Virus record (IMG/VR): IMGVR_UViG_2778261631_000002
Origin: a virus
Lineage: Duplodnaviria; Heunggongvirae; Uroviricota; Caudoviricetes
Reading direction: 5' to 3' (one strand)
DNA length: 64,000 nt
Positions 7,915 to 12,326 of this stretch are shown in pieces. Made by a program: the position numbers and the translations under genes. The first letter of the stretch is position 1; each line of letters starts with the position of its first letter. The notes beneath the pieces were generated by a model. It had not been told where the DNA came from, did not search any database, and saw only the letters and a list, made by a program, of their open reading frames with translations.

Positions 7915-8277
7915 TCAGCTTTCGTTGGCATTTAACTTCGTCTTTGCTTTCTCCACCAGCAACTTCCAGATGCCTATTTCATTAGCAGCCGCCTTGATGG
8001 CGGCATAAAAAGCATCTTGCTGATCGTAACGCTGGATCTGTTTTTTCAGTTTTGCCTCCACCAATTTAATTTCATTACGTGCTTTCTGAAGCCGCATCAC
8101 CGCCCGGTTACATCTGTTCTTGTATAGCGTGTTAATCTCTGACAATTGCTTTAATTTACCAGCCTGACTGCGGATTATCGCCTCCCTGGCTTCTGCCGTG
8201 CGTCTCATCTGATCTCTTAAGAGTTCACCGTTTTCGATAATTCTTTCAAGGTGTTTGATGTGATCTGCAACTCTCAT
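7915..8277 (-). CDS. Hypothetical coiled-coil protein
   Basis: 120-aa ORF, last gene of the minus-strand operon; start overlaps the upstream stop. Confidence 0.5.
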   Translation of the reverse strand: MRVADHIKHLERIIENGELLRDQMRRTAEAREAIIRSQAGKLKQLSEINTLYKNRCNRAVMRLQKARNEIKLVEAKLKKQIQRYDQQDAFYAAIKAAANEIGIWKLLVEKAKTKLNANES

Positions 8278-9572
8278 ACTTCACCCTCGCTTGTATCACC
8301 AGCGTCCACCAACGACAATAAAGCCCTGGCCATCTTATGAACCAACAGTGCATCAATAATGCCAAGCGTATGCCCCGGCTTAATGTTTAATGCTGCCTCA
8401 AGATGACACCTTTCCAGACCGCTTTTCTCGGCTTGTTTATGATGATATGGCGTAATAACGTCGCCCAAAACACGGCTAATTCTTTCTCGTAATTGCTGGG
8501 TGCCAGCACACTTGATCGCTGTATCGTGGAGACGGTTAACCAGTTCGCGATAAACATGCGGCTTAATGCGGATACGTTCACCGGTGACGCCCTTTCCTGG
8601 CGCTGGCACCGAACTATCCGGAATATCCGGATAGTTGCCAGCCTCGTAAGCTACCCGCAGCCAGTGCATGAATGTTTCAGTGGACACACAACCACAGTCC
8701 ACATCGATTTTCCCGCGTTGCTGTTCCAGCCATTGCCCAAAATCCAACCTGTAAGTCTTACTTTGGCTTACAGGTTGGCTACCCTGAAGCATGGCAGCGT
8801 GGCAGGCATACTCAACGCCCTTAACTGCATCTGCGCAGTAGTTATAGCGATTGCATTCCACTAATTTCCGTTTGAGTTTTTCAATTGCCTGCGCGACATC
8901 AGCCTGTATTACAGGAACTGGCGGAACGGCTGTTTGCTCTCGAACGTCATTAGTCGCTATCGGTTCTGCTGCCAACTGACTGGCATATTTGTTAATGGTA
9001 ACGATAAGCTCTTGCTCAGCCTCATCCAGACAATCACCGATACCTCGCCTGTCACCGTCAAAATCATCGAAATCGGCACGAATCTTGGCAACCTTCAGGA
9101 TTGCGGACAACACCTCACTAGGAATTACCGGATAGTTGGTTGACGTTTCCGCGATTTCCCGAAAATTATTGGTTGACGAATTCTTGTTTTCCCGAAAGTT
9201 TCCGGACTGAAGCATGGCGGCGCGGCAGGCGTTCCAGCCATCTGCGTAACAATCTCTGTGTGTCTTGAAATATGTCACCGCCCTTGGTACATCGTTTACG
9301 TCTATTTCATCCGGCACAACCGGCGCAGGTGAGTCAGCATAAACAGGAATAACGTCCGGTTGCTCTTTATTGCTTTCATCCGTTAAAGCCCAGAATAATT
9401 TCCCGGCCGGATGTTTGAAAATATAAGCAACTGGTTCTGCTTCCAGCGATGCCAGAGCAATTCGTGCCAGTTCTTCCGCTTCTTCTGCTGGCAGTACAAC
9501 GTTGCTACCAGGTCCGTATGTTTCGCGCCACTGCTTGATTGTCAGTAGTCGCTCTTTGGTAATAGTGATCAT
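8274..9572 (-). CDS. Hypothetical protein with an internal duplicated Cys motif
   Basis: 432-aa ORF; repeated C-x-A-D-x(4-6)-C-x-A-A-M-L-Q segments. Confidence 0.6.
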   Translation of the reverse strand: MITITKERLLTIKQWRETYGPGSNVVLPAEEAEELARIALASLEAEPVAYIFKHPAGKLFWALTDESNKEQPDVIPVYADSPAPVVPDEIDVNDVPRAVTYFKTHRDCYADGWNACRAAMLQSGNFRENKNSSTNNFREIAETSTNYPVIPSEVLSAILKVAKIRADFDDFDGDRRGIGDCLDEAEQELIVTINKYASQLAAEPIATNDVREQTAVPPVPVIQADVAQAIEKLKRKLVECNRYNYCADAVKGVEYACHAAMLQGSQPVSQSKTYRLDFGQWLEQQRGKIDVDCGCVSTETFMHWLRVAYEAGNYPDIPDSSVPAPGKGVTGERIRIKPHVYRELVNRLHDTAIKCAGTQQLRERISRVLGDVITPYHHKQAEKSGLERCHLEAALNIKPGHTLGIIDALLVHKMARALLSLVDAGDTSEGEV

Positions 9573-10084
9573 GCCGCGTTTCCTTCTTTCTTATTAACAA
9601 TTACACCGTCATATATTTCATTAAGGTGCCCTCTCAACTCCATGCGCCTTAATGCAGATAACATGTAATCGCATTCAACCTGCTTATTTCCAGTAAATGG
9701 CTTATCGTCAGGATTACCCCAACAGCAATTACCCTTGGGCCACCCATGTACTTTCCGTACTCTTCCGTTAACAACGTGAAGTAATCCCCAGCCAGGTGGT
9801 AAATCCTCAATTGAAATAATTCCCGGCTCACTAATAAAGAATCGCCAGTCGCCCATTCCAAGAGACGGATTTTTACGAAAACGCTTTTTTCTATCTGCCA
9901 ACAAGTCAGCACGAGAACACTTCGCCTCTATCAGGCATGATGCTGAATTTCTGAATCCCATAGCATCTGGCTGTTCTCCGGTACTGGTTACAGCTATAAA
10001 GCGGTCATGAAAACAAACCTTGAACCCGTTGCGCTTAAGGAACTTGTACGCAATCTGACAGAGTTCGCGGTGTGTTAACGCCAT
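9569..10084 (-). CDS. Putative PD-(D/E)xK-type nuclease-fold protein
   Basis: 171-aa ORF with QPD ... IEAK spacing typical of restriction-endonuclease-like folds; motif-level only. Confidence 0.4.
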   Translation of the reverse strand: MALTHRELCQIAYKFLKRNGFKVCFHDRFIAVTSTGEQPDAMGFRNSASCLIEAKCSRADLLADRKKRFRKNPSLGMGDWRFFISEPGIISIEDLPPGWGLLHVVNGRVRKVHGWPKGNCCWGNPDDKPFTGNKQVECDYMLSALRRMELRGHLNEIYDGVIVNKKEGNAA

Positions 10085-10085
10085 A

Positions 10086-10772
10086 TCACTCTCCTTTGAT
10101 GCGAATGCCAGCGGCGCGGATTGCAGCGATGACTTCAGAAACTTTGTATGCCATTACCGTTTGGTAATCATCGTGAAAATCTGTTCGATGAAGCATGCTG
10201 CTACGTTCCGGGAGCGATATTTCCCGAGCATCCAGTTCCTTAACGCGTTCCTCCAGTTCGTAGACCCTGCATTGTTCTCTATCATCAATCAGATATAACC
10301 CAAGACATTCGCTTTCTACCCAACCGCCAAAATCATGATCGTAACGCTCACATGAAAACTCACCGTCACCGTCCTTTGTTGGAATGGTGTAACTATCTAA
10401 TGGGCCACCATATGTCGGCACATTCCCCAATGTTGGATGCTCAATCCACATGAAAAATGCACGTCCGGTTATTGGGCAAATATCTGGCCGCCATTGGTTA
10501 CGAACAGCCTTGGTTTCGGATAATTCTTCAGCGTGTTGTTTTACTTCCTCAAGCTCAACTCTCAGCTTCCCAACCGTAAGAGCAATATCCTCGTTCTCCT
10601 GGTCACGGCGTTTGATGTATTGCTGGTTTCTTTCCCGTTCATCCAGTAGTGCCAGTGCCACCGATGGCGTGAACGCCATACGAAACGCCACAAAATTTTG
10701 ATGCATAGGTTCTGTTTCTACTGCAACTGCCGCATCTCGCAGTGCCTGATAGTCAATTGTCATTCTCGCCAT
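10086..10772 (-). CDS. Hypothetical protein
   Basis: 228-aa ORF in operon context with overlapping or adjacent stops and starts. Confidence 0.55.
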   Translation of the reverse strand: MARMTIDYQALRDAAVAVETEPMHQNFVAFRMAFTPSVALALLDERERNQQYIKRRDQENEDIALTVGKLRVELEEVKQHAEELSETKAVRNQWRPDICPITGRAFFMWIEHPTLGNVPTYGGPLDSYTIPTKDGDGEFSCERYDHDFGGWVESECLGLYLIDDREQCRVYELEERVKELDAREISLPERSSMLHRTDFHDDYQTVMAYKVSEVIAAIRAAGIRIKGE

Positions 10773-11404: not shown

Positions 11405-11681
11405 TGGTTGCCTCCGCTTCCCACGTTTTCAGACTTTCACCACAGAACGGGCAAAATGAAACTCGAATAGGCGATTTAGAAAATTCACCAGACCGCAGCA
11501 TGATCAGGTCTTGTGAATGAATTAATTCATGGTTATAGATTTTGTATTTCAGCAGACCTTTTCGCGTCGTGTATTCAGCGTCATGCTCCAGGGATTGTGC
11601 CAACGCCGCGCACGGTTCTATCTTGTTGCCATTAATTTGGCATTTTGACTCACTCACTGGTTGCCCCCTGAATACGCTCAA
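11397..11681 (-). CDS. Small hypothetical protein with CxxC motif
   Basis: 94-aa ORF; FCPFCGESL. Confidence 0.4.
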   Translation of the reverse strand: MSVFRGQPVSESKCQINGNKIEPCAALAQSLEHDAEYTTRKGLLKYKIYNHELIHSQDLIMLRSGEFSKSPIRVSFCPFCGESLKTWEAEATSE

Positions 11682-12231
11682 ACTCTATTACCCACACCCA
11701 AGGATTAGCGTTCCAACTATCTTCGCCATAAATTGATTTCCATAGGCTACGGAAACCTGGGTAATGCTTATCGCCAATGAGGGTCGATTCTGTTGGTGCG
11801 CCCTCAGCCCTTGCATCGCATTCGCTGATATCGTTCAACCGCTCAACGCGCACGTTGGTAATTTCCAGAAGAATGCGCGATGCCCAGCGCGGCATGTGAA
11901 TTGATGGCGTCCACTTTTCTGATACTGGTTTATTACAAACCTCGACCGGAACCCGGTGCGTTTGTTCTGTCCAGGAGTTACGCACGCTTGCGCGATAAAC
12001 CAGCGTTGCGACGTCCGTCGCTTTGCCATGTACCCGGTAGGTTTCGCGAACCCAAATACGATCGCCCGGTTGACCATATGGACAATGCTTGGCAAGCAAC
12101 TCTGCGGCCACTGCCCGTCCATAGAATTTTTCTTCAACAATCCTGCGAGTCTGTGTTTTATTCCCGCCAAGAATTGCCCGGACCATCTCATCGTTAAAAA
12201 TCATGCCGCGCTCTTTCACTTCGCCTTTCAT
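11650..12231 (-). CDS. Hypothetical protein, possibly ASCH/PUA-like
   Basis: 193-aa ORF; N-terminal GGNKTQTRR motif reminiscent of ASCH-domain proteins (weak). Confidence 0.45.
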   Translation of the reverse strand: MKGEVKERGMIFNDEMVRAILGGNKTQTRRIVEEKFYGRAVAAELLAKHCPYGQPGDRIWVRETYRVHGKATDVATLVYRASVRNSWTEQTHRVPVEVCNKPVSEKWTPSIHMPRWASRILLEITNVRVERLNDISECDARAEGAPTESTLIGDKHYPGFRSLWKSIYGEDSWNANPWVWVIEFERIQGATSE

Positions 12232-12239
12232 GCATCCCC

Positions 12240-12326
12240 CTTACCCATGTGCGACGATGCCGCCAAAAGTGATAGAGAACAGCCAGAAATAGATCGCGGC
12301 CATAATGATTTTGAATGCCGTGTTCA
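12240..12326 (-). CDS. Tiny hydrophobic peptide (28 aa) at the head of the early operon
   Basis: ATG with AGGAG SD 8 nt upstream; MNTAFKIIMAAIYFWLFSITFGGIVAHG; directly downstream of the operator-overlapped promoter. Confidence 0.25.

Follow-up and report, generated by a model that had tools for sequence, protein, structure and literature searches.

Directly downstream of the gene pap, and behind an operator called OpmgT (formerly Op88), phage P1 carries three genes, pmgT, pmgU and pmgV, all of which were non-essential in a genome-wide CRISPR interference (CRISPRi) screen of P1 (PMC10695390). The stretch from pmgT to humD is one of eight hypervariable regions in a comparison of 77 P1-like phage-plasmids, and phage JL22, in which pmgT is replaced, retains lysogeny (PMC9603915). 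The Op88 slot is hypervariable region 8 of these elements. Here we analysed the occupant of this slot in a 64,000-nucleotide stretch of viral DNA, IMG/VR record IMGVR_UViG_2778261631_000002 (hereafter the window), in which an earlier note, made from the letters alone, had pointed out a repressor-controlled early operon of seven to eight genes. The operon is the known 'hea' accessory operon of a P7-like phage-plasmid, and the expanded counterpart of the dispensable pmgT-pmgU-pmgV operon of P1. We read it, with a probability of about 0.6, as a P7-type Op88 accessory operon that is gated by the C1 repressor, holds a cassette of lambdoid early genes and acts early in DNA or RNA transactions and in development; most of the weight of this reading lies on its regulatory and evolutionary part.

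Further described systems bear on individual genes of the operon. The early genes of the exo-xis ('ea') region of lambda and Shiga toxin (Stx) phages influence lysogenization and are of largely unknown function (PMC4195576; PMC7093339). Ea22 proteins combine a common N-terminal segment and a coiled coil with unrelated C-terminal domains, and a tetrameric coiled coil has been reported for lambda and Stx Ea22 (PMC10834534); Ea22 is reported to be pro-lysogenic in lambda and Stx phages (PMC7093339; PMC10834534). The ASCH domain falls within the PUA-like superfamily, whose domains bind nucleic acids; some members are predicted to read modified bases, and some are linked to restriction-modification systems (PMC7641849). 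In Caulobacter, mitomycin C tolerance requires MmcB, a PD-(D/E)XK endonuclease (PMC9578287).

Positions 7500-12800 of the window matched phage P7 (AF503408 / NC_050152) over their whole length at 99.8% identity, and only 36% of this interval could be aligned with P1. On the minus strand of the interval the P7 record annotates seven coding sequences, upf86.8, upf87.4, upf87.6, upf88.3, upf89.0, upf89.5 and upf90.8, together with a nested upf90.5, and a protein_bind entry gives a C1-repressor site as "Op(hea); predicted to regulate expression of hea operon". Both the operon and its P1 counterpart are known from public records, the former, with operator and genes, from that of P7 and the latter from that of P1; a literature search on P7 'hea' or the Upf names returned no match. 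The window lacks the IS903 copy that deposited P7 has between upf93.6 and upf91.7, so the source is a P7-like element and not the deposited P7 sequence. The flanks meet at 7094-7102, a 9-bp overlap of two aligned blocks that is probably the IS903 target site. The operon was found at 99.5-99.9% identity in several independent E. coli plasmids, and at least 80% of it is carried by 18 of 5426 complete E. coli genomes.

Eight minus-strand open reading frames (ORFs) run from 12327 down to 7915 (Table 1), in line with the gene count of the earlier note and as tightly packed as it had described, neighbours overlapping by 4-13 nt or lying 1-9 nt apart. The stop codon of the first, a 28-aa small ORF (sORF), is separated by 9 nt from the ATG of Upf86.8. 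Overlaps of 8 nt join Upf86.8 to Upf87.4, given the annotated GTG at 11657, and Upf87.4 to Upf87.6; Upf87.6 and Upf88.3 overlap by 13 nt, Upf88.3 and Upf89.0 are 1 nt apart, and the Upf89.0/Upf89.5 and Upf89.5/Upf90.8 junctions are ATGA overlaps. A purine-rich stretch lies 5' of each start codon and is weakest at Upf87.4. Upstream of the sORF, the operator has one mismatch to the asymmetric 17-bp C1 consensus, ATTGCTCTAATAAATTT, and the P1 record annotates a C1-controlled operator at the same position. By position, TTGCTC-17-TAAAAC and TTGATT-17-GAAAAT match the predicted promoters P2pmgT and P1pmgT, respectively, of the P1 record, and the -35 hexamer of the former falls within the operator. 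Of the operator-overlapped promoter proposed earlier, the operator has a single mismatch and an annotation, and the promoter is a prediction. The description as a repressor-controlled accessory operon is borne out by the operator annotations in both records, by the non-essential P1 genes and by the hypervariability of the slot.

A scan of the window for C1-like sites with at most three mismatches gave 11, where shuffles predict 0.39. The ten beyond Op(hea), 17-mers with zero to three mismatches, lie at 873, 3387, 14502, 14551, 18175, 28236, 28247, 31769, 47333 and 49003, and at 28236-28263 two of them form an overlapping inverted pair. Their scatter agrees with the C1 regulon of P1 and P7, which is likewise dispersed.

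Table 1. Features of the hea operon in the window, and P1-like loci in which an hsd cluster takes its place
Feature	Position	Strand	Remarks
C1 repressor operator Op(hea), equivalent of P1 OpmgT/Op88	12410..12426	-	ATTGCTCTAATAAATAT; overlaps pap stop codon
Two overlapping predicted sigma-70 promoters, TTGCTC-17-TAAAAC and TTGATT-17-GAAAAT	12382..12425	-	positional homology to P1
10-bp GC-rich hairpin	12355..12377	.	between promoter and first start codon
28-aa hydrophobic sORF	12241..12327	-	MNTAFKIIMAAIYFWLFSITFGGIVAHG; AGGAG 7 nt 5' of ATG; no entry in P7 record
Upf86.8, 193 aa, ASCH-like (PUA-like superfamily)	11650..12231	-	PHROG 874, E 5e-87
Upf87.4, 86 aa (GTG start), small Cys protein, possible zinc ribbon	11397..11657	-	PHROG 4030, E 5e-44
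Upf87.6, 214 aa, alpha/beta N-terminal part and C-terminal four-Cys zinc ribbon	10760..11404	-	
Upf88.3, 228 aa, Ead/Ea22 family, N-terminal segment, coiled coil and own C-terminal domain	10086..10772	-	
Upf89.0, 171 aa, putative PD-(D/E)xK nuclease of MmcB/Hjc type	9569..10084	-	
Upf89.5, 432 aa, chimera	8274..9572	-	separate genes in P1-like locus L015; mosaic PHROG matches
Upf90.8, 120 aa, PmgV orthologue, final operon gene	7915..8277	-	96% identity to P1 PmgV; PHROG 4403, E 1e-77
hsd-carrying loci	L007: 9772-15786		L007, L009, L011, L023, L024, L037, L041, L051, L054, L056, L057, L059, L062, L067, L068, L074, L079, L080

P1 and P7 have in common the slot past pap, the position of the C1 operator, the leader and the 28-codon ORF, the peptide of which is 100% identical in the two phages. 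Residues 1-232 of P1 PmgT are allelic to Upf86.8 (47% identity), and P1 PmgU equals the last 111 residues of Upf89.5 (94% identity). P7 exceeds P1 by about 2.9 kb, comprising Upf87.4, Upf87.6, the Ea22 variant, Upf89.0 and the N-terminal two-thirds of Upf89.5. The earlier note had weighed the prospect that every member would turn out to be a P1 gene with an established role; three match P1 proteins, PmgT, PmgU and PmgV, which bear 'putative morphogenetic' labels only.

To compare the slot more widely, we retrieved 80 P1-like loci with Pap as the anchor, a few of which are truncated. The sORF was present in 75 of them. It is followed by the ASCH-like gene in 57 loci. In another 18 a type IC hsdR-hsdS-hsdM cluster converges on it, with its 3' end about 80 nt on, and the proteins of this cluster match the Pfam families EcoR124_C, HSDR_N, Methylase_S and N6_Mtase. 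These 18 loci keep the operator, leader and sORF, the entire operon being otherwise replaced. In this arrangement transcription from the C1-gated promoter would enter hsdR in the antisense direction, and the hairpin of the leader, with its T-run, would be a terminator facing hsdR. In the 22 regions with both ends, the window counted, the distance from the sORF to the end of pmgV ranged from 0.7 kb (one locus) to 8.25 kb, and is 1.44 kb in P1 and 4.33 kb in P7. The commonest order is the ASCH-like gene, 87.4 (not always present), 87.6, optional extra Ea22-like genes, the Ea22 variant, 89.0 (also optional), a DUF551-family gene (89.5N), three small genes (c10, c4 and c6), a 310-aa gene (c5) whose C terminus is PmgU, and PmgV. 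Among ten other cargo proteins of related loci, PAPS_reduct was the sole Pfam match. The operon thus has conserved ends, namely the leader hairpin, 28-codon ORF and ASCH-like gene on the 5' side and the PmgU domain and PmgV on the 3' side, between which the interior is interchangeable. Judged by these loci, most P1-like elements carry a fuller operon than the reference P1 genome. Textbook P1 has a deleted version, and P1 genetics therefore under-reports the usual content of the slot.

Comparison with a locus (L015) that encodes the parts of Upf89.5 separately accounts for this protein. Two L015 genes match it by BLAST, one at 84% over residues 1-322, which correspond to the lambdoid DUF551-family gene, and the other at 98% over residues 270-432, which correspond to the C terminus of the P1-lineage 310-aa gene. 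Because the two genes match separately and both contain segment 270-322, Upf89.5 is a chimera; this pattern suggests that it arose by deletion between copies of the repeated module 270-322. P1 appears to have gone further. PmgT residues 232-307 match P7 DNA in the PmgU-coding part of upf89.5 in another reading frame, which is that of the nested upf90.5, indicating that P1 pmgT arose when an ASCH-like gene was joined, out of frame, to the conserved gene that follows it. Correspondingly, P1 pmgU is the 3' remnant of the conserved 310-aa gene (4775-5844 of the P1 locus, compared with 8274-9572 of the window). The nested upf90.5 itself (8387-8581, minus strand) lies inside upf89.5 in the frame of the P1 PmgT C-terminal tail, and is unlikely to be a separate gene. 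The earlier note had also seen a duplicated Cys motif in the 432-aa protein. A short linear motif does recur, as C-x7-ACRAAML at residues 108-121 and C-x10-ACHAAML at 246-262, and the score of the internal local alignment was equalled in 9 of 2000 shuffles. A domain-level duplication was rejected, self-BLAST having found none, and the repeat is limited to an 8-residue motif.

The interior of the operon connects P7 to lambdoid prophages. Window positions 9309-11415, which span Upf87.6, Upf88.3, Upf89.0 and the first ~88 codons of Upf89.5, were 97.9% identical to Stx2c prophage DNA, and hundreds of records, Stx and lambdoid, matched parts of this block. Shigella phage Ss-VASD carries the homologues between its exo/recT/gam genes and xis/int. 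Distant homologues of Upf87.6 occupy similar positions, between recT/dam and xis/int in Pectobacterium and in the early-left arm upstream of int in Yersinia; in prophages of Acinetobacter and Methyloprofundus they are immediately preceded by cro and cII-like genes, or have the repressor nearby. On account of this near-identity and of the exo-xis and nin contexts of the homologues, we regard the P7 interior as a cassette of lambdoid delayed-early genes. The setting differs from that of the exo-xis region, in that the P7 genes stand under a P1-type C1-repressed promoter on a plasmid prophage and not under pL with N antitermination, and the exo-xis cassette of orf60a, orf61, orf63 and ea8.5 was not evident in the hea operon, for which no dedicated search was made. 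The earlier note had connected early operons of this kind with anti-defence or host takeover; such evidence as we have on function points to early activities of the lambdoid exo-xis and nin type, namely an Ea22 variant and a nuclease of recombination or repair type whose homologues adjoin NinB, NinG or RusA. Searches of Pfam, NCBIfam and PHROGs with all eight products gave a single above-threshold match, Ead_Ea22 in Upf88.3; every PHROG family matched by an operon product is labelled 'unknown function', and searches of PDB sequences with single sequences and profiles gave nothing usable beyond one weak match of Upf89.0.

The PD...ExK spacing reported for the 171-aa protein, Upf89.0, held up: D40, E53 and K55 were invariant across 33 homologues, down to 59% identity. 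Its predicted structure (predicted local distance difference test score, pLDDT, 82.7) has a restriction-endonuclease-like alpha/beta core. In a search of PDB sequences its profile weakly matched 3dnx (E 0.29) with the IExKxSRxDFxAD motif aligned, and weak Pfam Hjc matches were found in 15 of the 33 relatives. PDB 3DNX (SPO1766) is presumably a member of the MmcB/DUF1052 family, but the MmcB-like (DUF1052) Pfam family had no match among the 33 homologues even at E<=10. On the predicted model, then, Upf89.0 would fold and work like the MmcB-like family but is not a sequence member of it. It differs from the MmcB/Hjc endonucleases (3DNX SPO1766, Caulobacter MmcB and archaeal Hjc) in having no significant sequence match to any Pfam or NCBIfam family and in being encoded by phages, in delayed-early operons, and sometimes fused to an Ea22 N terminus. 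In P0091 and P0104 (Salmonella) and in P0100, the Upf89.0 nuclease domain is naturally fused to an N-terminal or coiled-coil part of Ead/Ea22 type, so the nuclease can be an interchangeable C-terminal domain of Ea22-type proteins. Nin regions contain homologues as well: that of Lonsdalea lies between NinB and NinG and that of Providencia between Dam/Lar-like genes and RusA, both with an 8-nt overlap with the resolvase gene (NinG or RusA). This placement suggests that Upf89.0 is a structure-specific nuclease of the NinB/NinG/RusA pathway. The likeness to the nin genes (NinB/Orf, NinG/Rap and RusA) is one of gene context, and in P7 itself Upf89.0 adjoins no recombination gene. The RefSeq name of Upf89.0, 'minor tail protein', was rejected for want of profile or fold support.

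Upf88.3 is a variant of Ea22. Residues 6-87 matched Pfam Ead_Ea22 (PF13935) with an E value of 4.4e-17 and 63.4 bits, above the cutoff of 27 bits, and it is this match, together with the near-identity of the block from Upf87.6 to the start of Upf89.5 to Stx2c prophage DNA, that likens the operon to the lambda/Stx exo-xis region. Near homologues in Ss-VASD are early-left genes between recombination genes and xis/int. The P7 gene does not have the exo-xis location, as it sits in a P1-type operon.

Upf86.8 belongs to a very large family, with 44,418 clusters at 50% identity (E<=1e-3) and relatives in phages of Pseudomonas, Vibrio, Burkholderia, Salinibacter, Flavobacterium, Akkermansia and others. 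Weak matches to Pfam ASCH (PF04266) were found in 9 of 54 diverse homologues (best E 2.4e-4), the Prokaryotic Genome Annotation Pipeline (PGAP) names an orthologue 'ASCH domain-containing protein', and several phage records label orthologues as ASCH or RNA-binding. These data support the ASCH-like label given by the earlier note at the level of remote homology. At 193 aa, Upf86.8 is far longer than a minimal ASCH domain, and its family has strongly conserved motifs of its own (KTQTRR, PSIHMPRWASR and NPWVWV). It had no PDB sequence match, and the RefSeq name 'DNA primase' was rejected, no profile or fold supporting it.

Two zinc-ribbon proteins had been proposed, of which Upf87.6 is clear and Upf87.4 is not. 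In Upf87.6 the four cysteines of C186-x2-C189...C204-x4-C209 were invariant in 48 sequences, and the model places strands at residues 182-185 and 192-195 of the ribbon. The predicted structure is very confident (pLDDT 93.5; predicted template modelling score, pTM, 0.82), its N-terminal part possibly consists of two similar modules, and no PDB entry matched the fold of the model, which is apparently an orphan. The length of the family is constant at ~215 aa down to 47% identity, including members from Acinetobacter and a methanotroph. The GenBank name 'putative tyrosine protein phosphatase' found no profile or fold support and was rejected. Upf87.4, present in 19 of the 80 loci, has one CxxC and a distal C-x9-C pair, as read from a single sequence, and gave only sub-threshold matches to DUF6980 (Pfam) and TFS4. 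The PHROG 4030 alignment begins at residue 9 of its 94-aa ORF, and the longer form, which starts with TTG at 11681 and has the poorest purine-rich upstream stretch, was not used.

The leader and the sORF are conserved parts of the slot. The hairpin at 12355-12377 is terminator-like on the plus strand (hairpin and T-run) and, on the operon messenger RNA, forms a 5' stem-loop that was seen in the minimum-free-energy fold of the leader; 2 of its 23 sites vary in at least two of 77 P1-like loci. The sORF, which the earlier note had placed one nucleotide off (12240-12326), is present and intact in 77 of 81 P1-like regions at a fixed distance from pap, and its peptide is identical in 62. Over its first 60 nt, 1.7% of sites vary in at least two of the 77 loci, compared with 14.1% in pap, and this segment is near-invariant, third positions included. 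By codon position, 6/4/6 sites vary in the sORF and 20/16/69 in the adjacent pap. By our own count the changes are about 9 non-synonymous and 6-7 synonymous, a sample too small for a dN/dS-style test. The pattern leans against ordinary protein-level constraint and is explained no less well by nucleotide-level conservation, or by a recombination anchor that swept recently, than by selection on a peptide. Of the 'leader peptide' proposed earlier, the conservation therefore stands, but not a protein-level pattern of substitution. In two loci (L055 and L064, at about 9600-9700) the sORF is disrupted past codon 19 by unrelated AT-rich sequence, from which it follows that a recombination junction lies inside the ORF and that an intact ORF is not strictly required. 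A 44-aa version, annotated as 'membrane protein' in phage SJ46, was rejected; its ATG lies within the leader hairpin and it has no Shine-Dalgarno sequence.

These data can be assembled into a tentative model. A weak sigma-70 promoter would be overlapped by a single C1 operator and, because of this overlap, the unit is expected to be silent in the lysogen and transcribed without active C1. Fresh infection or induction would then yield one polycistronic, translationally coupled messenger RNA, which the 5' hairpin may stabilize; the hairpin may also halt convergent transcription. Homologous recombination and deletion would account for the acquisition of the interior cassette and its later trimming, with Upf89.5 as a deletion chimera and P1 pmgT/pmgU as the remnant of a further deletion and fusion. 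By homology and neighbourhood, the operon would modulate the developmental decision as well as early transactions of DNA and RNA, and not virion building: Upf89.0 would cut branched or damaged DNA as MmcB, Hjc, Rap and RusA do, Upf88.3 would, like Ea22, be an oligomeric scaffold of coiled-coil type and tip the balance between lysis and lysogeny, Upf86.8 would bind or process nucleic acid through a PUA/ASCH fold, and Upf87.6 would be a zinc-ribbon early protein. The products would be dispensable for plaque formation in the laboratory. Several points weigh against this reading. The putative functions of the P7 genes all rest on remote homology; Upf89.0 itself matched no Pfam or NCBIfam family, and Upf86.8 itself did not match Pfam ASCH at E<=0.01. 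The C-terminal domain of Upf88.3 is unlike that of lambda Ea22, and the mechanism of Ea22 itself is not established (PMC10834534). Upf89.5, as a chimera, may be non-functional. Among the P1-like loci, the variable sites of the sORF show no excess at third codon positions. A generic promoter scan scored neither of the two sigma-70 promoters, which is why we call the hea promoter predicted. Finally, early expression and fast turnover would fit anti-defence cargo equally well.

This last point makes a counter-defence island, whose products would inhibit host immunity (restriction, sensors linked to RecBCD or abortive infection) straight after DNA entry and turn over in an arms race, a serious alternative among the rivals, if on balance an unlikely one. 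The predicted early, repressor-gated expression, the extreme turnover of cargo among the 80 loci and the presence of type IC restriction-modification in 18 of them all suit it. Lambdoid recombination-linked hotspots have been proposed as reservoirs of anti-immunity genes, and one anti-immunity inhibitor occurs fused to EaD/Ea22 proteins (bioRxiv 10.64898/2026.07.10.737580); ASCH domains, too, have been linked to restriction-modification systems and modified bases (PMC7641849). However, no characterized anti-defence protein was matched in Pfam, NCBIfam or PHROGs, with no anti-defence profile search made, the intact catalytic triad and recombination-gene neighbours of Upf89.0 fit an enzyme and not an inhibitor, and the sole tested phenotype of Ea22 is reportedly pro-lysogenic (PMC7093339). 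In a doubtful but wider version of this idea, the Op88 slot would be an exchange site for conflict genes that come on once the repressor is absent, the Ea22 scaffold and nuclease would form a module for counter-immunity or for hijacking recombination, Upf87.6 would represent a new class of early effector and the leader with its 28-codon ORF would be an RNA or DNA element. If so, the leader and ORF might serve as a recombination anchor for cassette swapping, and in the relatives with restriction-modification genes the leader might be a C1-gated antisense and terminator element facing hsdR. The operon could instead defend the prophage or exclude superinfecting phages, guarding the lysogen, as might be imagined from the restriction-modification systems that the same variable region hosts and from the predicted nuclease, Upf89.0; we consider this very improbable, as an operon behind a C1 operator is predicted to be off in the lysogen, and the PADLOC defence models matched none of the eight products.

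It is improbable, in our estimate, that the operon is decaying passenger DNA, a recombination scar without selected function in P7 whose ORFs persist through recent acquisition. The chimeric Upf89.5 and the fusion remnants pmgT and pmgU of P1 look like decay, several of the genes are frameshifted or incomplete in a related E. coli plasmid, and the operon is non-essential in P1 (PMC10695390). Yet all eight ORFs of the window are intact with their overlaps preserved, the families of Upf89.0 and Upf87.6 hold their catalytic or zinc-binding residues across genera to 47-60% identity, and the operon recurs nearly unchanged (99.5-99.9%) in several independent plasmids. Very improbable, too, is a morphogenetic operon whose products aid head or tail assembly. 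It draws on names, the P1 labels pmgT, pmgU and pmgV ('putative morphogenetic') and the RefSeq 'minor tail protein' of Upf89.0, and it is largely refuted: the P1 genes are non-essential by CRISPRi (PMC10695390), 18 of 80 loci have a restriction-modification system in place of the operon and one has it reduced to 0.7 kb, its homologues sit in the early-left and nin regions of lambdoid prophages and not in structural modules, Upf89.0 is predicted to have a nuclease fold, and no product matched a structural-protein family in Pfam, NCBIfam or PHROGs.

Beyond the public records, our analysis adds the fold-level assignment of Upf89.0, the ASCH support for Upf86.8, the apparently orphan fold of Upf87.6, the deletion-chimera history of Upf89.5 and P1 pmgT/pmgU, and the conservation of the sORF without a coding signature. 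Resistance genes are carried by P1-like phage-plasmids, which are common among Enterobacteriaceae and have few sites for the uptake of foreign DNA, the Op88 slot being one; here the slot shares near-identical genes with Shiga-toxin and other lambdoid prophages. The operon offers a compact set of candidates, namely a nuclease of recombination or repair type, an Ea22 variant, a member of a pan-phage ASCH-like family of more than 44,000 clusters and a well-modelled protein without a known fold, that bear on the long-standing question of what exo-xis and ea-type early genes do. As a specialist in P1 or lambda would find no surprise here, this value is practical and not conceptual.

At the other end of the operon, a local search for a terminator past Upf90.8 found only an AT-rich hairpin with no T-run beside it. 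A strongly hydrophobic 45-aa ORF on the plus strand (7702-7839) is convergent on this end. The P7 record has no entry for it and annotates upf91.3 on the opposite strand; the ORF is kept in P1 (4203-4340 of the P1 locus, L002) and corresponds to a hypothetical protein in phage SJ46.

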